Below are positions 2,285 to 52,494 of a DNA stretch of 64,000 nt, piece by piece. Source of the stretch: Candidatus Doudnabacteria bacterium (lineage in GTDB: Bacteria; Patescibacteriota; Doudnabacteria; UBA920); the NCBI GenBank assembly GCA_963837465.1, contig CAWINB010000004.1, positions 724,393-788,392 of the forward strand, in the 5' to 3' direction. A program made the position numbers and the translations under genes. The notes beneath the pieces are model-generated. The model was not told the DNA's origin and searched no databases. It saw nothing but the letters and a program-made list of their open reading frames with translations. Positions within the stretch are counted from its first letter, which is position 1; every line of letters begins with the position of its first letter.

Positions 2285-5200
2285 CTAATCCACCCCGACC
2301 ATGCCAATCTCATCCACCGATCTCAGCTCCGCCATCAAATCATTATTCATTCCCACCAGGGACTGGGTTTTTATTTTTTTGGCAGAATTCCCGCTGCCTA
2401 TGGACAGGTAAACTTGGGCGTTACCGGGGTATTTTTGTAAAATCCCCTTTATCCTGTTTAAAATTTCCATATTGGCCAGGCTGGACATATGCAGAACCAC
2501 GCTCTTGTTTTTTTCCATTTCCGACAGCGCCATATTGTATAAATCGTCGCCGGGCAGTTCCTTGATTTCGTCCGCGATGAGCTTTAGCTGCTCATCTTTG
2601 TCGCTGAGCCTGCCGGTAATCCGCAGGATTTTGTCATCGCTTAAGAACGGCAAAGCTTTTTCCATAACCTTGGGAAAAACCAAAACTTCCAGGCTGCCGC
2701 CGCCGTCGCCCAGGGTAAAAAAAGCCATAGGGTCGTTTTTACGCGTTAAAGTGCGCTTAAGCCGCGACACAATGCCGCCCAAAGTCAGGTTTAAACCCAC
2801 TTCTTCCAGGGACAAGCTTTTTATGGAGCGCAGCGTGGACAGGACTTTTTTGTGATTATCAAGAGGATGCGCCGAAACGTACATGCCCAAATGCTCTTTT
2901 TCCCAGACCAGTTTTTCTTCTTTGGTGGCGGGCGCCGAGTCCTTTAATTTTAATTTTCCCATTTGCAGGGATTTGCCGAACAGGGAATTTTGCCCGCTGT
3001 TTTGGTTTTTAAAATTTTCGCGGATAAAGTCCAAAATTTCCTCGGTATTATTAAGCAGCCGGCCGCGTTCGCCGTAAGCATCCAGCGCCCCGGCTTTGAC
3101 CAGGGCCTCCCAGGATTTTTTATTGAGATTTTTGGTGTAGGCGCGGGTCAGGAAATCTTCTAGGGACGAGAAAGGCGGCAGGGTAGGATAGAGGGGGCCA
3201 ACCGGGTTACTGTTCCCCAACAGCTCACCCCTAATCCCTATAATCTTGGCTATGACATCCGACCCCAGATTTTTAATCGCGTTAAGCCCAAACCTAATCG
3301 TGCTGTGATCCACCACCGTAAAATCCCCAAGCGATTCGTTAACATCCGGCGGCAGTACGCTGATACCCAAAGCTTTGCACTCCTCCACGGCTTCGTAAAT
3401 TTTTTCCTCGTCGCCGCTTTCCGCGGTCATTAAAGCCGCCATAAATTCCACCGGGTAGTTGGCTTTCATATAGGCCGTCTGGTAACTGACGGTGCTGTAA
3501 GAAGCCGCGTGCGCTTTGCCAAAACCGTAGGCGGCAAAAGGTTCTATTAAGGCGAAAAGTTCCGCCGCCTTTTCGGCGCGCATGCCGCCTTTAACGCAGC
3601 CATCTATGAATTTAATTTTTTGCTTGGTCATTTCCACCGGAATTTTTTTGCCCATGGCTTTGCGGAATTTATCCGCCTCTTCCCAGCTGTAGCCGGCGAT
3701 TTTAATGACAGTCAGCAAGACATCGTCCTGATAAACCAGCAGGCCCAGGCTCCGCTCCAGGTATTCTTTCATCCGGGGGTCAAAATAAGCGATTTTAGAC
3801 GGGTTATGCACGCGCTCTATATATTCGGGAATAATCCCCATGGGGCCCGGACGGTAAAGCGCTATCATGGCCATAATGTCAAAAATATTTTTCGGCTTGA
3901 GTTCTTTCAGATAGCGGGTAATGCCGGAAGACCCCAGCTGGAAAACGCCAAAAGTCAGGCCTTCGGAAAGCATTTTAAAAGTTTTCGCGTCGGGATGCGG
4001 AAGGTTGTAAATATCAATTGTTAAATTATGCCTTTTTTCCACCATTCTGACGGCGGATTCCAGGATGCTGAGGTTGCGAATGCCCAGCAAATCCAGTTTT
4101 ACGACGCCCAGAGCCCCGCTGCCGCCGGAATTCACATCCAGCGCGTACATGTCGTATTGGGTGATAATCCGCTCGCCGTCCGGCTCTTTTTGCAGAGGCA
4201 TGTAGTCGGTTAAGGCGGTGGGGGTTATGACGATTCCGGCGGCGTGCATGGAGGCGTGGCGCGCGCAACCCTCCAGTTTTTTGGCAATGTCCAAAACGCG
4301 TTTGGTTTCCGGGTCACGGTCGTAAATTTCCTTAAGTTCAGGGGTGTTTTGCAAAGCTTTTTCCAGCGTCATTAAAAAGCCCTGCTTTCCCAGAGGAATC
4401 ATTTTGGCAATTTGGTCGCACTTGGAATAAGGGATGGCCAGAGCGCGGCCGACATCCCTGACCGAGGCGCGCGCGGCCATGGTCCCAAAAGTTATAATTT
4501 GCGCGACTTTATCCGGGCCGTATTTTTTTGTGATGTAAACAATTGATTCGTCCCGGCGGTTATCGGCAATATCCAAATCTATATCGGGCGGAGCGGGGCG
4601 GTACATGGTTAAAAAACGCTCAAAGGGCAATTCGTAATATAAAGGGTCGACATTTGTAATGCCCAAAATCCGGCCCACGATGCTGCCGGCGGCGCTTCCT
4701 CTGGTGTTGGTAATAGCGCCGATATTATGGGCGCCCCGCACCACGTCCGCGACCATTAAAAAGTAACTGTCAAAACCTTTTTTGCAGATAATGTTGAGTT
4801 CGTAATCTATGCGGGTTTTAATTTCTTCCGGAATAGCAAGGTGTTCATCAACCCGGCTGTCATCGCGAGGAGCCCCGGAGGAATCCATCGGCGACGAAGC
4901 AATCTTTTCTTCGATGCTTGGATCAGATTGCTTCGGCCGCGCCCGCGATGACACATCTATAGGCTTGCCGTACAGCGGCAATGCTTTTTCATAAGTGACC
5001 TTCCTTAAATAATCCGCCGATGTTGTTCCTTGGGGGATTTCTACTTTTGGAAAGTATCTTTGGTCTGTCAAAATTTCCAAACTGCATAAATCCGCCACTT
5101 TTTGGGTATTTTGCACCGCCTCGGGAATATCGTAAAAAAGTTCCAGCATTCTTTCGCCGGATTTTAAAGACAGGTCATAACCGCGCATGTCCAAACGGTC

Positions 5201-7002: not shown

Positions 7003-8103
7003 ATGATAAAATTCCTAAACCGTTTTAAATATATAGATATCCCGCTGCTCGTGGCCGTTGTGCTGTTGTCTTTGTCGGGTTCGGCCATTTTATACGCCAC
7101 CACGCTTTCGGAAGACAGCAAGGCGATTTTTTACCGCCAGCTGATTTTTTTCATCCTGGGTTTTGGCGGCTTTTTTTTCTTCAGCTTGTTTGATTATCAC
7201 CGTTTGGCCAAAATAAACCGCATTGTTTACGTGGCCTGCGTTTTGTTGTTGTTTTACGTTTTGGTATTCGGCACCCTTGTCCACGGCGGCCGCCGCTGGC
7301 TGAGCATAGCTTTTTTGGGTTTCCAGCCCGCGGAACTGGTGAAGCTTTCGGTAATTTTGGGTCTGTCGCGCCTGCTGTATTTAAAGCGCGGCCAGATAAA
7401 TTCCTGGAGCACTTTGCTGTGGTCTTTCGCTTATGCTTTTGTGCCCGCGGCGCTGATTTTGGTCCAGCCGGATTTAGGCTCGGCCATAATTATTTTAAGT
7501 CTTTGGATGGGTATAATTTTATTAAGTCCGATTAAAAAAAGGTTTTTGGCCGTACTGTTTATTTTGTTTCTGGTGTTTGTGGGAGCGGGCTGGAAGTTTG
7601 TTTTAAAGCCTTACCAAAAAGACAGGGTTATGGTTTTTATAAATCCGGGATTGGATCCCCAGGGCCGCGGCTACAACGTGGAGCAGGCCACCATTGCCGT
7701 GGGCAGCGGAGAATTTTTTGGCCGCGGCCTGGGCAAAGGCGTGCAAAGCCAGCGCAAATTTTTACCCGAACGCCAGACGGATTTTATTTACGCCGCCGCC
7801 AGCGAGGAAATTGGTTTTTTGGGTTCCTTTACCCTGCTCGGGCTGTATTTTTTCCTGATTTTCCGGCTGCTAAAAATTTTACGGGAAGCCAGGGACGATT
7901 TGGGTATGTATATTTGCGGGGGCGCGCTGTTTTTTTTCTTTTTTCAGGTCTTAATTAACGTTGGGATGAACGTAGGCCTTTTGCCGGTAACCGGCATTCC
8001 TTTGCCGTTTGTTTCGGCCGGCGGCAGTTCCCTGGTGGTAAGCTTGCTTATTTTAGGCATAGCGGAAAATGTCAGTCTGCAGTCCAAGGCTTTGCGGTTT
8101 TAA
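7003..8103 (+). CDS. SEDS-family peptidoglycan glycosyltransferase (FtsW/RodA)
   Basis: Polytopic membrane protein carrying the SEDS motifs VQPDLGSAII, RQTDFIYAAASEEIGFLG and PVTGIPLPFVSAGGSS. Confidence 0.85.
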   Translation: MIKFLNRFKYIDIPLLVAVVLLSLSGSAILYATTLSEDSKAIFYRQLIFFILGFGGFFFFSLFDYHRLAKINRIVYVACVLLLFYVLVFGTLVHGGRRWLSIAFLGFQPAELVKLSVILGLSRLLYLKRGQINSWSTLLWSFAYAFVPAALILVQPDLGSAIIILSLWMGIILLSPIKKRFLAVLFILFLVFVGAGWKFVLKPYQKDRVMVFINPGLDPQGRGYNVEQATIAVGSGEFFGRGLGKGVQSQRKFLPERQTDFIYAAASEEIGFLGSFTLLGLYFFLIFRLLKILREARDDLGMYICGGALFFFFFQVLINVGMNVGLLPVTGIPLPFVSAGGSSLVVSLLILGIAENVSLQSKALRF

Positions 8104-11171: not shown

Positions 11172-11547
11172 TTTGATTAAATTCTTGTCGCAGTTTTTCT
11201 ATAAAGATTTTTTCCTCCGGCGAAAAATGGTTATACCGGACGCCTTTAAAATCGTACGGATTATAACCGGTAATATGACGAAGCCACCTATAAGCGGCTT
11301 CGCGATCAATTTCCATATAGTTTGAATCCGATTTTGATATTTCCTGTTCTATTTTTCTGACATAAAAACTTAGGATCAAAAGTTCTTTATTAGTTAAATT
11401 TTCTAACTCAAAGATGTTATTTATGTATAAACGAGCCCTCGCCAACTTGCGGCTAAATTCACTTTTTCCCTCAAAAGCTTCCTTGTCTAAGGGGTTATCG
11501 CTTTCAATTTCCATTTTTCCATTCGCGTGACCGATTAATTTAACCAT
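11140..11547 (-). CDS. hypothetical protein
   Basis: 135-aa ORF between prfA and prmC. It overlaps the prmC start by about 30 bp. No family recognised. Confidence 0.4.
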   Translation of the reverse strand: MVKLIGHANGKMEIESDNPLDKEAFEGKSEFSRKLARARLYINNIFELENLTNKELLILSFYVRKIEQEISKSDSNYMEIDREAAYRWLRHITGYNPYDFKGVRYNHFSPEEKIFIEKLRQEFNQNDDTGSFEKS

Positions 11548-15769: not shown

Positions 15770-15845
15770 GCCGTTGTAGCTCAGTTGGTAGAGCAACTCC
15801 ATGGTAAGGAGTAGGTCATCGGTTCAATTCCGATCAACGGCTCCA
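15770..15845 (+). tRNA. tRNA-Thr (anticodon GGT)
   Basis: Cloverleaf as read: GCCGTTG/CAACGGC acceptor stem, anticodon loop ATGGTAA, T-loop TTCAATT, and an encoded CCA. Confidence 0.85.
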
Positions 15846-17418: not shown

Positions 17419-17625
17419 ATGGCAATTCAAAATAACATAGGCGCAAATATTAAAAAGTTAAGGACTATATCGGGGTTATCGCAAGAAGACTTTGCAAAAA
17501 AGTCTGGCGTTAAATATACAACCCTGACAAAGATTGAAAGTGGGGTTATAAAAACTCCCTCGGTTTTAATTATGGCAAAAATTGCAAAGGCTTTAGGTGT
17601 TACGATTGAAAATTTAATAAAATAA
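17419..17625 (+). CDS. XRE-family helix-turn-helix transcriptional regulator
   Basis: LRTISGLSQEDFAKKSGVKYTTLTKIESG. It is transcribed divergently from the recombinase. Confidence 0.8.
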   Translation: MAIQNNIGANIKKLRTISGLSQEDFAKKSGVKYTTLTKIESGVIKTPSVLIMAKIAKALGVTIENLIK

Positions 17626-17637
17626 ATTTGCCCTTTT

Positions 17638-18741
17638 ATGGTGGAAGCGCCTGCGAACAAACAAATATGGTCTAACTCAAATCTATCAGAGGTTTTGCCT
17701 GGTATTGTTTTGCCTTTGGTTTCCAGCACTGTCATTAAAGTTGTGACAGAAGGCTTTGGGACTATCTTTCCCCTCAAAGCACAAGAGGAGATTTTAAAAG
17801 ACTTTAAAGGGAGAATTTATTTTAACGCCACCTTGGTAGAAGATATATTAAAAAAATTATTGGATTTGCATAAAGTCAGCCTTGAACAGATTTTGGGTGG
17901 TGACCAATCGGAATTTGGATTCGGGCAATCCCTAAAGTTTCCAAATAAGATACGCCTCGGAGCTTTTGTTATTAAACAGCTTTTACTTTCTTTTTTCGCC
18001 CAAATATATATTAAAGTTAGGTTTATTTCTTTTCGTAAGCACATTGATAATTATCTGCAAAACATAAAACGGGCTAATACGACCGATGAATTAAACCGAC
18101 AGTTTAGGCATATATCTAACTTTATTAGCAGTTTAGTAAACCCTGCTTTTCAAGCATTATTTTATCCTATTGCATTGCATCTTTTATTTTTAGAACTTTG
18201 TAAAAAATGGCTCGGGGCAGGATTTAACGAGCAGGCGCAAAATTTGCTGGCGGACGGTAAAAGCGACATTGAATTAGTGCACGCAATGGGTATGCTATGG
18301 AACATAAAGGAAGGGATAAGCAAAGACCCAAAATTCAAGCAGGAGTTTTTGGTTTCTTCCAATGCCAATGAGGCTATAAGCGTTCTCCGAAAGAACCAAG
18401 GGGTATATAAAAATTACTGTGATTTTTTGAATAAATTTGGCCAGCGTTGCATTAAGGAAATGGACTTTTCTTTGCCCCGCTGGAATGAAGACCCAACTTT
18501 TATAATTACGCTTATAAAAAAATATATTGAAACTCCCGACGGACAAAGCCCCTTAAAAAATAAAATTTTATTGGAGCAAAAAAATCTGATAGCAGTCAAC
18601 CAAGCTCGTCAGAATTTGTCCTGGTGGAAATATCATCTCTTAATGTTTGTTTTAAAGAAGTCAACTAAAGGATTGAATTTGAGAGAAAGGTGCAAGTTGG
18701 AATCTGGCCACATATTCCAAGTGCTTAGGTCTTTTTTTTAA
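17638..18741 (+). CDS. PEP-utilising-enzyme-family protein fragment (central region; no N-terminal ATP-grasp domain)
   Basis: Weak similarity to the middle part of PEP synthase/rifampicin-phosphotransferase-type enzymes. It continues in the next ORF after an 11-bp gap. Confidence 0.35.
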   Translation: MVEAPANKQIWSNSNLSEVLPGIVLPLVSSTVIKVVTEGFGTIFPLKAQEEILKDFKGRIYFNATLVEDILKKLLDLHKVSLEQILGGDQSEFGFGQSLKFPNKIRLGAFVIKQLLLSFFAQIYIKVRFISFRKHIDNYLQNIKRANTTDELNRQFRHISNFISSLVNPAFQALFYPIALHLLFLELCKKWLGAGFNEQAQNLLADGKSDIELVHAMGMLWNIKEGISKDPKFKQEFLVSSNANEAISVLRKNQGVYKNYCDFLNKFGQRCIKEMDFSLPRWNEDPTFIITLIKKYIETPDGQSPLKNKILLEQKNLIAVNQARQNLSWWKYHLLMFVLKKSTKGLNLRERCKLESGHIFQVLRSFF

Positions 18742-18752
18742 AGCTGGGCGAA

Positions 18753-19319
18753 TTGTGGGATAAAGAAAATTTAATTATAGAACCATCTGACATTTTTTAT
18801 TTTACTGCCTCGGAGCTAAATGGTTTTTTACAAACAAATTCTTTGGGTAATAAAAACCTATTCAATATCGTGGCCGAACGTAAAGCCGAATACCAGCACT
18901 ATGCCAAAATTAGTATGCCCGACAGAATTTTTGGAAATGAATATGACGAGTTTGCAAGTATTAAGGATGTTGCTCAAAAAGACCAGAGCTTGCCAATACA
19001 GAAGGAGCTCAAGGGGGTCGGAATTAGCGGCGGAGTTGTTGTAGGAATTGCACGGGTTCTTATGTCAGAAAATCAAATCTCGGAGATTAAGCCTGGAGAA
19101 ATTTTGGTCACAGACCATACTGACCCTGGTTGGACTCCAGTCTTTGGGGTGATTAAAGGGCTGGTTACCAATGTTGGTGGTCGCTTGTCCCACGCTTCCA
19201 TAGTAGCGAGAGAATACGGACTGCCGGCTGTTATAAGCGTTCCGAATGCCACAAAGATTATTTCAACAGGGCAACATATTTCACTTGATGCTAATAATGG
19301 AACGGTTAAAATTTTATAG
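18753..19319 (+). CDS. PEP-utilising enzyme mobile (phosphohistidine) domain protein
   Basis: VTDHTDPGWTPVFGVIKGLVTNVGGRLSHASIVAREYGLPAVIS is the canonical swivelling His-domain motif. Confidence 0.65.
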   Translation: MWDKENLIIEPSDIFYFTASELNGFLQTNSLGNKNLFNIVAERKAEYQHYAKISMPDRIFGNEYDEFASIKDVAQKDQSLPIQKELKGVGISGGVVVGIARVLMSENQISEIKPGEILVTDHTDPGWTPVFGVIKGLVTNVGGRLSHASIVAREYGLPAVISVPNATKIISTGQHISLDANNGTVKIL

Positions 19320-26522: not shown

Positions 26523-28064
26523 ATGGCTACAAAAACTAAAAATGGTACATCGGCAAACATAGGTTTTGAAGAAAAGCTTTGGGCCACAGCGGATAAAATG
26601 CGCAACAATATGGACCCGGCCGAATATAAGCACGTTATTCTGGGGCTTATATTTTTAAAGTATATTTCCGACTCTTTTGAAGAACTCTATCAAAAGTTAA
26701 AAACTGATTCTGAATCCGATCCGGAAGATAAAGACGAGTATTTGGCGGAAAACGTTTTTTGGGTGCCGCAGGAGGCACGCTGGAACTATTTACAGGATAA
26801 CGCCAAAAAGCCCGGTATCGGCACTTTGGTAGATGGGGCTATGGTCGCCATTGAAAAAGAAAACCCCACGCTTCGGGGCGTGCTGCCAAAAATTTACGCG
26901 CGCCCGGACCTGGACAAAACCAGGCTCGGTGAAATAATAGATTTAATGAGTTCCCTTGGCCTGGGGGATAACGAAAGTAAGGCTAAGGATTTGTTGGGCC
27001 GGGTATATGAATATTTCATCGGCCGCTTTGCCAGCGCCGAGGGTAAGGGTGGCGGAGAATTTTTTACTCCGCGGTCTGTTGTAAAATTACTGGTGGGAAT
27101 GATTGAGCCTTATAAAGGCAGAATTTATGATCCCTGCTGCGGCAGTGGTGGTATGTTTGTGCAGAGCGAGAAATTTGTGGAAGCGAACGACGGCCGCAAA
27201 GGGGATATTGCGGTGTACGGACAGGAGTTAAATCCTACTACCTGGCGCTTGTGTAAAATGAACCTGGCTATTCGCGGTATAGAAGGAAATATCGGGTCGC
27301 AGCATGCCGATTCGTTCCATAATGACCAGCACAAAGACTTAAAAGCGGATTTTATCTTGGCCAATCCGCCATTTAATATCAGCGATTGGGGAGGGGAGCG
27401 CTTGCGCGATGATGTCCGCTGGCAATACGGCGTGCCGCCAACCGGTAACGCCAACTATGCCTGGATTCAGCATATGGTTTACCATCTTGCTCCAACCGGT
27501 ATAGCCGGTTTTGTTATGGCTAATGGCAGTCTTTCTTCCAATACTTCCGGCGAAGGTGAAATTAGAAAAAATTTAATAGAAAAAGGTTTGGTCGATTGTA
27601 TTGTAGCCATGCCCAGCCAACTTTTTTATACCACACAAATTCCGGCCTGTTTGTGGTTTGTGTCCCGCGACCGTTACGATCACAAATTCCGCAACCGCCA
27701 CGACGAAATACTGTTTATAGACGCCCGTAAAATGGGCGCTATGGTTAGCCGCAAAAACCGCGAATTTGCCGCGGAAGATTTAAACAAAATCACCGGTACC
27801 TACCACAACTGGCGCAACGTCAACGGTAAATACCAGGACGTAAAAGGCTTCTGCAAAGCCGCCAAAATTACGGAAGTGGAAAAAGCCGGCTTCGTCCTAA
27901 CCCCCGGCCGCTATGTTGGCTCGGAAATTGTGGAAGAAGACGATGAAGTCTTTGGAGAAAAAATGAAGCGATTGACCACGGAACTATCAAGCCAATTTAA
28001 GGAATCTAAAGAGCTGGAAGAAAGAATAAAGAAAAATTTGGATTCAATAGGGTTTAAAATATAA
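26523..28064 (+). CDS. hsdM: type I restriction-modification system methyltransferase subunit
   Basis: HsdM N-terminal domain, the motif [13 protein letters not shown], and the FxGxG AdoMet region. Confidence 0.9.
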
Positions 28065-46417: not shown

Positions 46418-47648
46418 ATGCTTACAAAAGATTTGATGGAAGAAACATATTGGGCACTTTCCGCCAATAAAGTGCGGTCATTTTTGACAATTTTAGGCAT
46501 TGTTATTGGAGTTGCCTCGGTGATAGCCATGATAGCCGTAGGGCAGGGCTCCCAAAGCAGCATCCAAAACAGCATCCAGTCCGCCGGAGCCAATTTGTTA
46601 ACAATTAGTCCCGGAGCCCAGGTGGGAGTTGGGGTTACGGTAAGCTCCGGTCGTGGCAGCGCCCAGACCTTGCTGCAAACCGACGCCACCGCCATTACCC
46701 AAAATGTGCCGCTGGTTTCCGCCGTATCTCCGGAATTTAGCGGGCGTTACCAGGTCACGGCAAAAGGCACCAACACCAACACCAGCGTAATTGGTGTTTT
46801 ACCGGCCTACCTACAGGTTCACAACGTGCAGATTCAGGAAGGCAGCTTTATTACCGCCGAGCAAAATACCCAGTTGGCCAGAGTTGTGGTTTTGGGCCCG
46901 ACGGCGCGCGACGATTTATTCGGCGTGGGAGCGGAAGCCGTAGGCCAGACAATAATAATTAAAAGCGAAGAGTTTAAAGTTATCGGTATAACAGTTTCCA
47001 AGGGCGGCACCGGTTTTAACAATCCGGATGACGCGATTTACAGCGCCTTTATCAACGGTGCAGCATTTTTTAGCCGGGGATACCACAGGTTATCTCACGA
47101 GTATCGCCGTCCAGGTTCAAAATCAGAGTGATATGGACGCGGCGCAAAACGAGATAACCACCCTCCTGCTGCAACGGCACAATATTTCAAACCCGACCAA
47201 CGCGGACTTTAGTATTGTCAATCAGGCCGATATTGTGGCATCCGCTTCCACCGTTACCAATACTTTTACCATACTTTTGGCTTCGGTGGCGGGAATTTCC
47301 CTGTTGGTGGGCGGTATTGGCATCATGAATATGATGCTGACTACTGTAACCGAACGTACCCGGGAAATCGGCTTGCGCAAAGCTATCGGCGCGCAAAAAA
47401 CCGATATTACCAAGCAATTTTTGAGCGAAGCCGTTATGCTGACTTTTTTGGGCGGAATGATAGGTATTGTACTGGGGTGGCTGATTACCTTGGCTGTAAC
47501 TTATTTTGCCAATATCGCGACCCAAGTTTCGTATTCATCCATCCTTTTGGCTTTTGGGGTTTCCGCGGCCATTGGTATAATTTTTGGCTATTACCCTTCC
47601 AGAAGGGCGGCTGCCTTAAATCCGATTGAGGCGCTGAGGTATGAATAA
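46418..47648 (+). pseudogene. ABC transporter permease (MacB/FtsX family) with a +1 frameshift in a T6 run at 47066-47071
   Basis: Frame a ends ...DDAIYSAFINGAAF. Removing one T gives ...AFLAGDTTGYLTSIAVQV, continuing into the FtsX domain (frame of 47028..47648). Confidence 0.7.
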
Positions 47649-48937: not shown

Positions 48938-49024
48938 GGGCAGGTACTCAAGCGGTCAACGAGGACTGACTGTAAATCAGTTGGCTTTACGCCTTCATAG
49001 GTTCGAATCCTATCCTGCCCACCA
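48938..49024 (+). tRNA. tRNA-Tyr (anticodon GTA), class II with a long variable arm
   Basis: GGGCAGG/CCTGCCC acceptor stem, anticodon loop CTGTAAA, T-loop TTCGAAT, and an encoded CCA. Confidence 0.8.
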
Positions 49025-50475
49025 TTGAAAAATTTCCAGCTTTTTTGGCGATTCCGCTATTAGCTGATAAGGTTGTTTGAGCTGAAAACATTGTGTGTTA
49101 CCATCTTGGAGCTTAAGGTTCCAAAGTAACTTTTTCAGCAATTCAAACTTTTTAGCGTTATCGCCGGAAAGATAATCAAAACTAGCAGAATTGGCCTGTA
49201 AGAAGGCCTTTTTTGTTTGTTCCAAAGTTGCCAACTGTTGTTCGGGAGTAATCTTGCCTAAATCGGAAATCTGCTTTGTGATAGTTTCCACATCCTGCTT
49301 CAGAGATAAAATTTTAGGCTTGAGCGTTTCTTTCATATCGGGGTCAGAGGAAATCATCTCAATTAGGTTTGCGAGTTTGCCTTGAGCCGTTTTAAGCTGT
49401 TTGGCCAGTTCTGATTTTTTGTCATCAGTTGAACCGCCCTGTTTTAGGATTTTATGCTTGGCCGCTTCGTAAGCCATTTCCATTTCATTGATGTCAAACT
49501 GAACATTGCTAAAAACTTTAGCCACTAACTCATCGTTGCCTTATCCCTTAAATATTTTCTGTGCTGTTCACAATTTCCTTTGCCATTGGTGCAGTACCAA
49601 TAAATGTGGCCTTTTTTAGTTGTTGCTGTTAAAGCACAACCACAAGAAAAGCAATTCATAAAACCTCTTAATGGAAAAAAGTGTTTTTGGGCTTTGGGGT
49701 GATGTTTGCCGTTTAAGACATCTTGGACATTATCAAACAGGGTTTTGCTGATTAATGGCGGATGATTGCCGGGGTAAAGCTGGCCGTTACTCCGCATTGT
49801 GCCATAGTAAAATGGCTGGGTTAAGATTTTATGCAATAAGGCTTTGCTGACTTTAAAGCCCTCTCTAGTGTTTAAGCCCTGCTTTTCTAAAATTTCATTA
49901 ACCTGCTTAAGAGAATAGCCGCCGGTAGCGTAAAGTTCAAAGGCTTGTTTAACTAATGAACCTCTAATGGGGTCAATTTCTTTTAGCTTGGTAATTTTGT
50001 TATCAATGTAACCCAAGGGGGAGCGGTTCGGCCATTCACCCCTTTCTAATTTGGTGCGGTTGCCACGCTTCACATTTTTGGACAGGTCGATGCTGTATTG
50101 TGCGGCCATACTAAACTCCACGCCGGAAACCAAAACATTGTCTTCGGGATAGTAAGTTTTTTCGGGAGTGATTATTTTACCGATTATTCCAGTTTGCAAT
50201 AGCCATTTAATTTTACCCTCGTCAATGGGGTTTCTGGCGAGCCGGTCAAGTTTCCAAACCAAAACCACAGAGCCAGGGTTACGCTCAATTAAACTTACAA
50301 GCTTTGCAAATTCAGGACGGCCGGGTTTTCTTGCCGACATACTTTCGGTAAAACTTTTATCAACAGCAATATTTTGTTTTTCCGCAAAAGCCGCCAACTC
50401 CTTTTCTTGGCTCTCAATGGAAAGCACCTGATGATAGGAATCTTCGGACGAATGAACAATGGGGACATGACCCAT
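49010..50475 (-). pseudogene. second large serine recombinase, split by a frameshift at about 49525
   Basis: 49525..50475 encodes the catalytic + recombinase + zinc-ribbon region. It lacks the conserved N-terminal Y/R residues, and its start codon lies inside an IS hairpin. 49010..49525 encodes the coiled-coil C-terminal region in another frame. The 3' end overlaps tRNA-Tyr, the same layout as at tRNA-Thr. Confidence 0.7.
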
Positions 50476-51203
50476 TGTTTTGGCTTAATTATTGTTTAAA
50501 AGGCCTTCCCGGCTGTCTAAGGGTATAGCCTAAATCATATCTGTCGACTTGTTTGCCAACCCAAGCCTCACTGCCAAAAGGCCTGCTTTTTTCAACCGAA
50601 GTCCTAATGTTATCAAGCTGTGTTTTTGCTAATGGGTGATTAACCAAGCTTAAATAATTCTTTGGTATTTCTATGGGCCAAGGCATTAAAATCTTCTTAG
50701 CCAATTCGGAATTCTTTAATCTTAAACACAAACTGCTCCAAGGCCAATCCTCGGCGTTTTTTACCATTTTGGCTCGAAGGGCATTGGCTTCTACATATTT
50801 TGCCAGTTGTATAAAATATTCATCTTTTTCAACCAAAAAAGACTTGAATCGGCCCTGAAATAAATGCCCCGTCCCCACCGTACCGTGTTTTGTGTGCCAT
50901 CGCTGGGTTGTTTTTTGGGTAAACTTACCAAAAAATCCACCCATATCCCCATTAGCTTTAGGCCTGACTACAAAATGCCAATGATTAGACATTATGCAAA
51001 AAGCAAAGATGTCTATGGGAATTAACTCCAATGTTTCCACTAAGGATTTTACCACGCCTTGGAAATCTTTGTCGGATTTAAATATATCCCAACGGGCGTT
51101 GGATCTATTTATGACATGAAAAATCTGATCGGCTATGTCCAGCCGCGGTTGTCTAGCCATTGCTAAAGTATAACATAAAAAAATTAATGGGTCATGTCCC
51201 CAT
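50458..51203 (-). mobile_element. IS200/IS605-family (RAYT-like) element bounded by 19-nt hairpin ends aatggggacatgacccatt / aatgggtcatgtccccatt
   Basis: The two ends are exact reverse complements, and each is an imperfect hairpin. These are subterminal-hairpin ends, not TIRs. Confidence 0.65.
50489..51160 (-). CDS. tnpA: IS200-like / REP-associated tyrosine transposase (HUH Y1)
   Basis: IMSNHWHFVV (HuH) and GHLFQGRFKS...YVEANALRA (catalytic Tyr region). 223 aa. Confidence 0.75.
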   Translation of the reverse strand: MARQPRLDIADQIFHVINRSNARWDIFKSDKDFQGVVKSLVETLELIPIDIFAFCIMSNHWHFVVRPKANGDMGGFFGKFTQKTTQRWHTKHGTVGTGHLFQGRFKSFLVEKDEYFIQLAKYVEANALRAKMVKNAEDWPWSSLCLRLKNSELAKKILMPWPIEIPKNYLSLVNHPLAKTQLDNIRTSVEKSRPFGSEAWVGKQVDRYDLGYTLRQPGRPFKQ

Positions 51204-51207
51204 TCAT

Positions 51208-52494
51208 TTAAGTCCCTTCCTGCCAGCTGGCCAAATATTTTTGCTGGGCTGGTGTTAGTACGTCTATTTTAACTCCAAGTGCCGCTAATTTTAGCCGGGA
51301 AACTTTTTCGTCTATTTCTTTTGGTACGTTGTAGACTTTATTTTCCAGGGTTTTGTAATTTTTGGCCAGCCACCGGCAGGTTAGGGCTTGGTCGGCAAAG
51401 GACATATCCATAACCGCCGCCGGGTGGCCTTCGGCCGCGGCCAGGTTCATCAGCCGTCCTTCGGCAATCAAAAATATTTTTCGCCCATTCTTCATACTAA
51501 ATTCCTGCAAGTTGTCCCTGACGAGCTGACAGCTGACAGCTGACAGCTTTAAGCTTGCTATATCAATCTCCACATTAAAATGCCCGCTGTTGCCTAAAAT
51601 CGCGCCATCTTTCATTAGTTTAAAATGCGCGGCGGTTAAAACGTCTTTGTCTCCCGTGGCCGTTAAAAAAATGTCTCCGATTTTTGCCGCTTGCGCCATT
51701 GGCATAACTTCAAAGCCGTCCATGGCCGCCTGTAAAGCCGGCAGGGGATCAACTTCAGTCACTATCACCCTGGCCCCTAAACCCTTACCCCTTAGCGCCA
51801 TTCCCTTGCCGCAATAACCGTAACCGGCGACCACTAAAATTTTTCCGGCTAACAGGATATTGGTGGCGCGCAATAAACCGTCCATGGTGGATTGCCCGGT
51901 ACCGTAATAGTTGTCGAACATATGCTTGGTCGGCGTATCGTTAACCGCCACTATCGGGTACTTAAGCGCGCCGTCTTTGGCCATAGCCCTGAGCCTGATT
52001 ACTCCGGTCGTGGTTTCTTCCTGTCCCGCCCGGACAGTTTTAAGAAGTTCGGAGCGATCCGAATGGATAAGTGAAATTAAATCCGCGCCATCGTCAATGG
52101 TAATGTCGGGCTTAAAATCCAGGACATCGTTTAAAGCTTTGTAATAGTCTTTATGATTGATTCCGCGCCAGGCAAAAACGTGGATTTTATGTTCTGCCAG
52201 CGCGGCGGCCACGTCATCCTGGGTAGAAAGGGGATTACTGCCGCACAGCGCGACATTCGCGCCTCCGGCCACCAGCGCCTTCATTAACACCGCGGTTTCT
52301 TTGGTCACGTGCAGGCAACAGGCAATATTTAAATTTTTTCCGCCGGAGGCGGATCCGCCTTTGGCGGAAAACGGTTGTTGCTGTTTAAAATCGGCTGTTA
52401 TGGACCGCAGTACTGGCATTTCCCGCTCGGCTAAGTCTATGTTGGCGCGCCCCTTGGCGGCCAGCTTTTGATTCTTGACCTGAAAACTTTTCAT
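51208..52494 (-). CDS. ahcY: adenosylhomocysteinase
   Basis: Collinear with SAH hydrolase, including the NAD-binding GYGxxGKG region. It contains a roughly 10-aa Gly/Ser insert encoded by palindrome A' and a (gctgaca)3 tract. Confidence 0.9.
   Translation of the reverse strand: MKSFQVKNQKLAAKGRANIDLAEREMPVLRSITADFKQQQPFSAKGGSASGGKNLNIACCLHVTKETAVLMKALVAGGANVALCGSNPLSTQDDVAAALAEHKIHVFAWRGINHKDYYKALNDVLDFKPDITIDDGADLISLIHSDRSELLKTVRAGQEETTTGVIRLRAMAKDGALKYPIVAVNDTPTKHMFDNYYGTGQSTMDGLLRATNILLAGKILVVAGYGYCGKGMALRGKGLGARVIVTEVDPLPALQAAMDGFEVMPMAQAAKIGDIFLTATGDKDVLTAAHFKLMKDGAILGNSGHFNVEIDIASLKLSAVSCQLVRDNLQEFSMKNGRKIFLIAEGRLMNLAAAEGHPAAVMDMSFADQALTCRWLAKNYKTLENKVYNVPKEIDEKVSRLKLAALGVKIDVLTPAQQKYLASWQEGT
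51524..51547. repeat. heptanucleotide tandem repeat (gctgaca)x3 inside ahcY
   Basis: Seen directly. It encodes SAVSCQL and is in-frame because 21 bp is a multiple of 3. Confidence 0.6.
52346..52381. repeat. family A GC-rich palindrome, second copy, in-frame inside ahcY
   Basis: ttttccgccggaggcggatccgcctttggcggaaaa compared with 2225-2258. It encodes the SAKGGSASGG-type insert absent from canonical AhcY. Confidence 0.75.

Follow-up and report, generated by a model that had tools for sequence, protein, structure and literature searches.

A RAYT-like transposase unit with terminal inverted repeats in the place of DNA lost beside a tRNA-Tyr-overlapping serine recombinase pseudogene of Candidatus Doudnabacteria

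The locus described here is part of an 868-kb contig of Candidatus Doudnabacteria, a member of the Candidate Phyla Radiation (CPR; Patescibacteria), and was searched within a stretch of 64 kb, here called the window. Side by side in this locus lie a gene for tRNA-Tyr, the remains of a gene for a large serine recombinase (LSR), a compact unit in which a transposase gene (tnpA) is enclosed by two inverted copies of one 19-mer, and ahcY, the gene for S-adenosylhomocysteine hydrolase. The locus can be compared with an orthologous one in which the recombinase gene is intact, and in this before-and-after pair 4.5 kb is precisely replaced by the unit, from the outer end of one terminal inverted repeat (TIR) to the outer end of the other.

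There are two tRNA genes in the window according to ARAGORN: tRNA-Thr (15770-15845) and tRNA-Tyr (GTA), which is on the + strand (48938-49024) and matches Rfam family RF00005 with 58 bits. The last 15 nucleotides (nt) of tRNA-Tyr (49010-49024), including the encoded CCA, are antisense to the end of the recombinase, which is read from the - strand in two open reading frames (ORFs). The ORF of 316 amino acids (aa; 49525-50475) holds the N-terminal segment (49525-50454) and matches the Pfam families Resolvase (E-value 6.8e-18), Recombinase (4.9e-16) and Zn_ribbon_recom (9.8e-5). The ORF of 171 aa (49010-49525) holds the coiled coil and C-terminal region (segment 49010-49539): it aligns without gaps to residues 319-489 of the relative P0123 with 52% identity, and residues 316-494 of P0123 gave a tblastn match at 49534-48998. 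This segment ends in ...FQWWAG*, with its stop codon within the 3′ end of the tRNA. The two ORFs are parts of a single LSR gene, with the order Resolvase, Recombinase, zinc ribbon and coiled-coil C-terminal region that characterizes the family. At tRNA-Thr there is an intact paralogue of 498 aa (Rec1), which is 42% identical to the LSR at tRNA-Tyr and likewise ends inside the tRNA. The overlap at 49010-49024 bears out the initial annotation of the window, in which a second tRNA-anchored recombinase, arranged as at tRNA-Thr, had been recognized.

An intact orthologue was found by exact-sequence cluster look-up, as a member of the same 90% cluster. This protein (P0241, MDR3643319.1; 489 aa) is from the metagenome-assembled genome (MAG) Candidatus Doudnabacteria MAG_CO250, where its gene, on contig L188, overlaps a tRNA-Tyr gene (11456-11542); an uninterrupted recombinase at tRNA-Tyr is therefore present in a relative. 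The window gene is 87% identical to P0241 in its N-terminal part (residues 10-345) and 76% identical in its C-terminal part. Alignment of the DNA to L188 places a one-base deletion at 49539/49540 (- strand; GATAAG-GCAACG in the window vs GATGAGTCCGCC in L188), so that the window gene is one base short of the uninterrupted frame. The gene had rightly been regarded as split by a frameshift, although the position then given, 49525, is merely where the two ORFs abut. The identical base is missing from L001 (assembled from ERR10755945 by Logan), where one single-nucleotide polymorphism (SNP) is the only difference from the window over ~2.75 kb, and the site is outside any long homopolymer. Besides the truncation and the frameshift, there are no stop codons in the gene by comparison with the intact orthologue. 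Given the identities of 87% and 76% and the lack of further stops, the inactivation does not appear to be ancient. Elsewhere in the window, a gene for a MacB/FtsX-type permease (46418-47648) also consists of two overlapping ORFs, with a change of frame near 47041-47046, whereas its orthologue in L188 is one gene of 409 aa; it may be either a second pseudogene or the product of an indel error in the assembly.

Homologues of the LSR number about 2400, mostly of 485-510 aa, and are from Candidatus Doudnabacteria and Parcubacteria. When the N-termini of 12 full-length sequences (11 database relatives and Rec1 of the window) were aligned, all 12 were found to start with M-K-x-I-I-Y-C-R-[KR]-S-S-E-D...QVLSIESQ. 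The LSR at tRNA-Tyr starts with M-G-H-V-P-I-V-H-S-S-E-D, i.e., Pro and Val replace the conserved Tyr6 and Arg8 (numbering of the intact relatives), while the nucleophile Ser10 and the LDRLARN motif are kept. Arg8 is a residue of the active pocket of serine integrases (PMC12884075). Thus, the loss of catalytic residues proposed in the initial annotation holds for Tyr6 and Arg8 and does not extend to the nucleophile or to LDRLARN. The claim that the first codons of the recombinase lie within the left hairpin of the inserted element is correct, since the ATG at 50475 and the codons for MGHVPI fall inside the 19-mer at 50458-50476; homology to the intact orthologue begins at codon 9, i.e., the gene has been decapitated at the repeat, as had been suggested. 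The missing N-terminal fragment was found nowhere else in the window by tblastn. The LSR at tRNA-Tyr, lacking a complete active site (Tyr6, Arg8, Ser10) and an open frame, is a pseudogene, an LSR by descent, and the integrase is presumably inactive; the truncation of the N-terminus stands independently of the frameshift. The 316-aa and 171-aa “recombinase” ORFs are best annotated as one pseudogene.

The unit next to the truncated end occupies 50458-51204 (747 bp, one more than the 746 bp initially given). At the 3′ side of tnpA there is the 19-mer AATGGGGACATGACCCATT (50458-50476, + strand), which is conserved in this position across the 12 related tnpA loci, and at the 5′ side there is its exact reverse complement (51186-51204, - strand). 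These are the only two matches to the 19-mer in the 64 kb at up to 3 mismatches, where 0.03 are expected by chance. Each copy can fold, weakly (-3.8 and -3.4 kcal/mol), into a stem of 6 bp with a loop of 7 nt. It was thus accurate to describe the ends as exact reverse complements, each capable of forming a hairpin; to call them subterminal hairpins as opposed to TIRs was not, for they are one sequence in inverted orientation, a perfect 19-bp TIR. The TIRs are separated from the tnpA ORF by 25 nt upstream and 12 nt downstream. Outside the unit, the bases AAC (50455-50457, + strand; GTT, the Val codon of the chimeric ORF) do not match the orthologue (GTT vs CGC in L188). AAC also precedes several dispersed copies of the TIR, and the AAC at the junction might tentatively be seen as an outward extension of the TIR. 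On the other side, the stop codon of ahcY (51208-51210) is 3 nt from the TIR.

What was probably lost from the window can be read from the intact locus. The window and L188 share Peptidase_A4 (PepA4), DUF2127, ahcY, the LSR, tRNA-Tyr, g145 (a gene for 145 aa), FtsX and ABC in the same order and orientation; ahcY itself (51208-52494, - strand; Pfam AdoHcyase), a host gene, is 75% identical and forms the boundary of the replaced interval. Between ahcY and the LSR, L188 has an interval of ~4.5 kb with g135 (Pro_CA_2-like), g96, g257, g64 and g295, the last of which encodes a rolling-circle replication protein of 295 aa (REP_ORF2-G2P, 2.8e-14). Homologues of these five genes were found nowhere in the 64-kb window. 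As g135 also follows ahcY in a closer relative (L108), it can be regarded as a host gene. Homology at the DNA level ends at the stop codon of ahcY and resumes at codon 9 of the LSR (CGT to CAT), so that 4527 bp of L188 (5498-10024) correspond to 753 bp in the window (50455-51207), i.e., to the 747-bp repeat-bounded unit with 3 bases on each side. Both breakpoints are therefore within 3 nt of the outer ends of the TIRs. According to the initial annotation, the rest of the integrated element appeared to have been deleted, and this is directly seen here; it was also correct that ahcY directly follows the unit, although the neighbouring host gene g135 has been lost as well. The event is not, as had been supposed, a simple insertion into the recombinase gene, because the missing 5′ part does not lie across the unit, and the replaced DNA amounts to ~4.5 kb and takes in a host gene. 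The MAG in which the integrase locus is intact has its own copy of the unit on another contig (L056, the same as L002), and no TIR-like sequence was found in L188-L191 at up to 4 mismatches.

Several further observations concern the history of this locus. The LSR is 87% identical to its orthologue while its flanks are less similar (ahcY 75%, DUF2127 58% and Peptidase_A4 60%; window 49010-52494 vs L188 4244-11470), which suggests that the element has been exchanged horizontally or has entered the same tRNA-Tyr site on separate occasions. No direct repeat of the tRNA-Tyr 3′ end that would mark the far end of the element was found in the window, in L188 or in L106; the absence of a long repeat fits serine integrases, since these need none. 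A scan of metagenome contigs for ahcY yielded no empty site for comparison, the downstream regions in L108, L109 and L110 being different or cut short. In L110 (5890-7848), ahcY is 77% identical and a tRNA-Tyr gene lies 625 nt downstream, co-oriented with ahcY (the opposite relative orientation) and with no recombinase behind it; the linkage of ahcY and tRNA-Tyr predates the element, and one lineage has undergone a change of orientation. The cargo genes of the family members in L106 and L107 have no homologues in the window. A match of 16 out of 19 bases between the 3′ end of tnpA and the region upstream of the intact integrase was set aside as chance similarity of AT-rich DNA, since these bases encode the conserved C-terminus of the transposase.

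The transposase gene (50489-51160, - strand) appears to be intact and encodes a protein of 223 aa (TnpA) of the HUH/Y1 type (Pfam Y1_Tnp, 1.8e-11) that is RAYT-like. It covers the full 146 positions of the NCBIfam profile REP_Tyr_transpos (NF047646) with 66.1 bits, below the cut-off of 80. The sole match to TnpA in the Protein Data Bank by phmmer was 4ER8 (TnpA_REP of E. coli), to whose HUH motif and catalytic Tyr the NHWH and Y122 of TnpA align. H60, H62 and Y122 (H60-W-H62) are invariant across 17 homologues of TnpA, down to 44% identity; the HUH/Y motifs, whose failure to appear on proper alignment would have told against the initial annotation, are thus present. An AlphaFold model of TnpA (pLDDT 91, pTM 0.89) was compared with known structures by Foldseek. 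The top match was again 4ER8, a complex of the RAYT with a REP hairpin (E-value 1.9e-9; TM-score, normalized to the target, 0.73), while ISDra2, IS608, IS200 and other transposases of the IS200/IS605 type followed at 8e-6 or worse. The predicted fold is accordingly of the RAYT type rather than of the IS200 type. The C-terminal part is conserved, helical and confidently folded in the model (H143-214, pLDDT > 90). There is no ORF of the size of tnpB within the 747-bp unit. TnpA is encoded once in the 64-kb window, and the exact protein was found on one large contig.

The pairing of tnpA with its TIRs is kept in relatives. In 12 related loci, with TnpA proteins 62-100% identical, there is exactly one + copy and one - copy of the core GGGGACATGACCC flanking tnpA. 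The loci read in detail were the window/L001, L002, L003/L004, L005/L006 and L007/L012, and in each of them the downstream TIR is the exact reverse complement of the upstream TIR. The TIRs vary between lineages (AAT...ATT, ATT...ATT, AAC...GTT and AAT...GTT), and in the AAC...GTT form one pair of the stem has been exchanged in a compensatory manner (AATGGG/CCCATT to AACGGG/CCCGTT). The gene neighbourhood differs in each lineage: ahcY and the LSR in the window, and elsewhere an ABC transporter, arginase, Fic or LytR. The unit of P0027, by comparison, keeps to a single site in 10 contigs that come from several samples. Thus, the unit appears to move on evolutionary time scales and to be stable within populations.

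Copies of the TIR are also dispersed. A scan of one genome per species with the query AWYGGGGACATGACCCRTT gave 109 matches in 93 stretches, 80 of which were listed; a few dozen would be expected by chance over the collection by our own estimate (35 bits, 596 Gb, both strands). The matches listed cluster in CPR genomes of small size, with up to 7 per MAG, and in Aminicenantes. A tnpA homologue was present in only 8 of the 93 stretches; in the others there were solo copies of the TIR, often just past genes, and REPIN-like inverted doublets with spacings of 10-50 nt (L036, L047, L059, L060, L067 and L079). The 868-kb source contig is not among the 80 stretches listed. The sequence of the hairpin, uniqueness of which had been named as a point against the initial annotation, is thus not unique to this locus: it flanks tnpA in every relative and is dispersed in related genomes, with just two copies in the window.

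In Aminicenantes and some other MAGs, the doublet has the form GGGGACATGACCCATTTCTC..GAAATGGGATCGTGTCCCC (L014, L019, L023, L024, L028, L039, L049, L050, L057, L089 and others), in which the same core is paired with an inverted and diverged partner, GGGGACAC, that matches the motif GGGGWSAS (discussed below) in full; as judged from these sequences, the repeat family would span distant phyla. Partial, “stuttered” copies of the left half of the TIR stand 5′ of many TIRs (e.g. AAAAAACGGGGACATG... repeated), at L005 ~2890-2960, L016 ~4325-4370, L063 ~7830-7918 and L076 300-360, and have the appearance of abortive or repeated joining at that end. In L052 (392-1142), an inverted TIR pair surrounds ~700 bp with ORFs that are not transposases (122 and 69 aa; no Pfam match), for which an identification as HicAB was dropped for lack of Pfam support. 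In L076 (361-569), a TIR pair surrounds the first 44 codons of tnpA only, an internal-deletion derivative. Thus, a TIR pair can bracket other or degraded cargo. With regard to DNA next to the unit, a P-loop fragment of 47 aa in L002 runs into the upstream TIR and matches the first ~30 positions of NTPase profiles, always below the cut-offs, and in L004 an ORF opens at an ATG inside the downstream TIR, as in the window; an identification of the ORF that follows the unit in L004 as an RHS fragment was dropped, as Pfam gave no support. These possibly truncated ORFs in L002 and L004, a small sample, hint that the arrival of the unit may often be accompanied by the loss of adjacent DNA.

To which class, then, does the unit belong? 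IS200/IS605 elements, to which it had been assigned initially, have ends formed by two different hairpins on one strand, and usually occur as several whole copies per genome, often with tnpB. The unit in the window resembles those with known transposases (IS608, ISDra2 and IS200) in the HUH/Y1 core fold with the His-hydrophobic-His motif and the catalytic Tyr, in the absence of an obvious target-site duplication, and in ends that can form hairpins. It differs in the property that defines the family, for its ends, and those of every relative, are identical and inverted, not distinct and co-oriented; it also lacks tnpB, its protein is longer, full elements in multiple copies were not seen (with one tnpA in the 64-kb window), and IS200/IS605 structures match TnpA less well than does the RAYT structure. 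The likeness to the REPtron/RAYT system (TnpA_REP of E. coli, 4ER8) is closer: this is the best match of TnpA in both sequence and fold, its gene is likewise single-copy and lies between inverted palindromic repeats, and the inverted doublets with short spacers in related genomes resemble REPINs. The differences are that TnpA is below the NCBIfam cut-off for RAYTs (66 vs 80 bits), that the palindrome, with 19 nt and about -4 kcal/mol, is both short and weak, that there are up to 7 exact-match TIR copies per MAG and not hundreds, and that tnpA changes its locus between lineages. RAYT palindromes carry a GTAG (or CGTC) tag at one foot (PMC3733652). No such tag was found next to any copy of the TIR, where the flanks are rich in A or G 5′ of the copy and in T 3′ of it.

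RAYT-like genes flanked by TIRs have been named TIRYTs, and the unit of gene and repeats a TIRtron; many TIRs of TIRtrons share the motif GGGGWSAS, and in some genomes TIR families comprise single, dimeric and grouped copies (Di Nocera, De Gregorio and Rocco 2013, PMC3733652). The TIRtron/TIRYT has been equated with subclass 2.1 of TnpAY1, long proteins with a C-terminal domain (Quentin et al. 2018, PMC6006769). The window unit has a RAYT-like HUH/Y1 gene between two inverted repeats, each a short and constant distance away from the ORF, an arrangement kept in the 12 loci; its TIR core starts with GGGGACA (published consensus GGGGWSAS); its protein exceeds the E. coli RAYT in length, has a C-terminal extension and is encoded by one gene copy per genome; and in some genomes TIRs are found away from the gene, singly, as doublets or in groups. 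There are also differences: the host is one of the CPR/Patescibacteria, whereas the phyla named in PMC3733652 and PMC6006769 are others; the TIR, with its 6-bp stem, is self-complementary throughout and agrees with the motif at 7/8 positions; a DnaA_C/HTH (helix-turn-helix) Pfam domain was not detected in the C-terminal part of TnpA; and the unit is situated exactly where 4.5 kb was lost, for which there is no such description in PMC3733652 and PMC6006769. The TIRtron/TIRYT description is the best fit, with the GGGGWSAS motif and the C-terminal HTH verified in part, and “IS200-like transposase” is best renamed a RAYT-like or TIRYT gene. The pseudogene, for its part, is akin to large serine integrases of the Bxb1, phiC31, CcrAB and XisF type in the order of Resolvase, Recombinase, zinc ribbon and coiled coil, in the motif Y-x-R-x-S...Q with LDRLAR, and in the location of the intact orthologue at one end of a small element; it differs in that its clade is anchored at the 3′ ends of tRNAs, with the ORF terminating in the tRNA in a fixed frame, and in being a pseudogene. 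Every part of the locus is thus of a known kind, and for the host phylum (CPR/Patescibacteria) no description of TIRtrons was found.

HUH/Y1 enzymes of RAYTs and of IS200/IS605 elements cleave and rejoin single-stranded DNA beside hairpins. Because both breakpoints are within 3 nt of the outer ends of the TIRs, cleavage and rejoining at the TIRs is the most likely cause of the replacement. We therefore consider it probable (roughly 0.8) that an element integrated at tRNA-Tyr was wrecked when its cargo, a host gene and the start of the LSR were replaced by a TIRtron, probably through cleavage and rejoining by the HUH enzyme at the TIRs. The anatomy of the locus and its orthology to L188 are shown directly, as are the extent of the replaced interval, the transposase class, the conserved pairing of the TIRs and their spread through related genomes. 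A small integrative element (the LSR, a gene for a rolling-circle Rep and a few small genes) would have been situated at the 3′ end of tRNA-Tyr, and the DNA from codon 8 of the LSR back to the stop codon of ahcY (4527 bp in L188) would have been replaced by the 747-bp TIRtron, with the HUH/Y1 enzyme presumably cleaving the DNA and rejoining it at the TIRs. This could have been either a one-step replacement, in which the two TIR ends were joined to two target sites 4.5 kb apart, or an insertion with subsequent end-adjacent deletion. The LSR would have survived as a pseudogene that lacks codons 1-8 and one further base, with its stop codon still inside the tRNA. We infer the order of these steps, and the two routes are indistinguishable here.

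Some points weigh against this reading. The connection between the enzyme and the deletion is drawn solely from the coincidence of the breakpoints with the ends of the TIRs, and TIRYT activity is demonstrated neither here nor in PMC3733652 and PMC6006769. L188 is not from a close strain (ahcY 75%, LSR 87%), which makes the ancestral content of the lost interval a matter of reconstruction, backed by the fact that g135 follows ahcY in two relatives. In the 64-kb window there are no copies of the TIR beyond the two flanking tnpA. The start of the TIR, GGGGACAT, falls one position short of the published GGGGWSAS (7/8), and no Pfam HTH or DnaA_C domain was found in the C-terminal 92 residues of TnpA at E-values up to 10. 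The second frameshifted gene, that of the MacB/FtsX permease 2.5 kb away, makes indel errors in the assembly possible.

Could the TIRs and tnpA be no more than a passive, domesticated single-copy gene, with the 4.5 kb lost by ordinary deletion or recombination in the host, or by reductive decay, and trimmed back to the unit? CPR genomes are streamlined, the unit of P0027 is fixed at one site in 10 contigs from several samples, and the dispersed TIR copies in relatives are possible substrates for recombination. RAYT-type genes are, moreover, generally single-copy and thought not to copy themselves (PMC5581495). Two unguided, independent deletions are nevertheless unlikely both to end within 3 nt of the outer TIR ends, the unit is at a different locus in every lineage examined and hence moves, and the orthologous locus offers no TIR for homologous recombination; recombination between TIR copies would itself be TIR-dependent and would overlap with the preferred explanation. 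A passive gene is, in our view, unlikely, albeit the most serious competitor. A classical IS200/IS605 insertion, i.e., a Y1 element with subterminal hairpins that was peeled and pasted into codon 8 of the recombinase, is very improbable. Its appeal is in the name of the Pfam family Y1_Tnp (“Transposase IS200 like”), the hairpin-capable ends, the lack of an obvious target-site duplication and the presence of ISDra2, IS608 and IS200 TnpA among the structural neighbours; it is contradicted by the orientation of the ends, which are the same sequence inverted, by the absence of tnpB, by a 223-aa protein with a C-terminal extension of ~100 aa, by the better match to the RAYT model and 4ER8 than to any IS200/IS605 transposase, by the single copy per contig or population, and by a recombinase whose 5′ part is not found beyond the unit, 4.5 kb having been lost instead.

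With respect to the recombinase, the frameshift at 49539/49540 could be an indel error of assembly or sequencing, in which case the truncation of the N-terminus would be the single lesion in the LSR. The frame-split permease gene 2.5 kb away (~47041-47046), intact in L188, speaks for such an error, and the reads behind L001 (ERR10755945) may not be independent of the source assembly; the missing base is nonetheless shared by L001, with one SNP relative to the window over ~2.75 kb, and there is no long homopolymer at the site, which leaves an error doubtful. That the recombinase still functions, by starting at the ATG in the TIR and passing the frameshift by programmed slippage, is scarcely credible. 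The ATG within the TIR does open an in-frame ORF of 316 aa, the nucleophile serine and LDRLARN are kept, and there are two lesions only, with no other stop codons. The near-invariant Tyr6 and Arg8 are, however, now Pro and Val, Arg8 having a role in the active site; none of the 111 full-length relatives has a gene split at this point; there is no slippery heptamer at the site; and the element that was to be excised is gone.

The genes of RAYTs and TIRYTs are usually regarded as present in one copy, passed on vertically and mobilizing nothing but their short repeats. To our knowledge, their arrival at new loci, and the effect of this on neighbouring DNA, is poorly documented. The pair formed by the intact element at tRNA-Tyr in L188 and the window makes rearrangement directed by the ends of TIRYT-class units testable, and its value is in documenting precisely a replacement, bounded by TIRs, in which another mobile element was destroyed; in addition, TIRtrons and their dispersed repeats are extended to the CPR/Patescibacteria. 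A bolder, speculative proposal, to which we attach little probability, is that the TIRtron is an autonomously moving unit which joins its TIR ends to two separate targets and replaces the DNA between them and, jointly, that the integrase clade uses tRNA-based attachment (att) sites. If so, the locus would be a natural record of self-mobilization in the RAYT family and, within a minimal CPR genome, of one mobile element in conflict with another, the TIRtron having erased both the element resident at the tRNA and a host gene.

The clade of serine integrases to which the pseudogene belongs has a feature of its own. Throughout this CPR clade the ORF enters the 3′ end of a tRNA gene (Thr, Tyr or Gln) from the antisense strand, and the frame is always the same, as at 15834-15845 and 49010-49024 in the window, L106 11453-11467, L107 ~11456-11481 and L188 11456-11470. 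In this frame, the encoded CCA yields Trp and the T-arm yields D/E-S/L-N. A tail derived from the T-arm is present in 51 of the 111 full-length LSR homologues (vs 1% of internal control windows), and 25 more of the 111 end inside the acceptor stem. On the far side of the clade's elements, the tRNA end was not found as a long direct repeat. The fixed-frame endings would point to tRNA-based att sites for these integrases and may help to predict att sites in uncultured CPR bacteria. A full-text literature search found no description of tRNA-targeting serine integrases in CPR, or of tRNA-based att sites for serine integrases, which does not in itself prove novelty. In L107 (10001-13981), the recombinase P0131 ends in a partial 3′ fragment of tRNA-Gln, with the complete tRNA-Gln 2.4 kb further on and, between the two, a 235-aa ORF and an IS3-type transposase (HTH_Tnp_1 and rve); the arrangement suggests that this tRNA has received a tandem or secondary insertion.

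Two signals for transcription may be associated with the repeat on the 5′ side of tnpA. A consensus scan gave a promoter-like site for tnpA at 51167-51195 (- strand), with the -35 element ATGACC inside the TIR and TG-TATACT as an extended -10 element, and a box resembling TGTGATATAAT is found at the equivalent position in relatives of the unit, so that the site is a candidate promoter. The TIR at 51186-51204, together with the run of seven T that follows it, resembles an intrinsic terminator directly past ahcY.

Elsewhere in the window, a tblastn match to TnpA at 26880-27197 was weak and was rejected as spurious, as it is situated in an ORF of 513 aa (26523-28064) which by eye looks like the methyltransferase HsdM of a type I restriction-modification system, unrelated to the unit. 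Upstream of the intact recombinase at tRNA-Thr there is a divergent ORF of 68 aa (17419-17625) that is similar by eye to HTH proteins of the XRE type. Next to it, at 17638-19319, come ORFs of 367 and 188 aa that do not share a frame, which by eye resemble a PEP-utilising enzyme and may be a split gene at the edge of the tRNA-Thr element.

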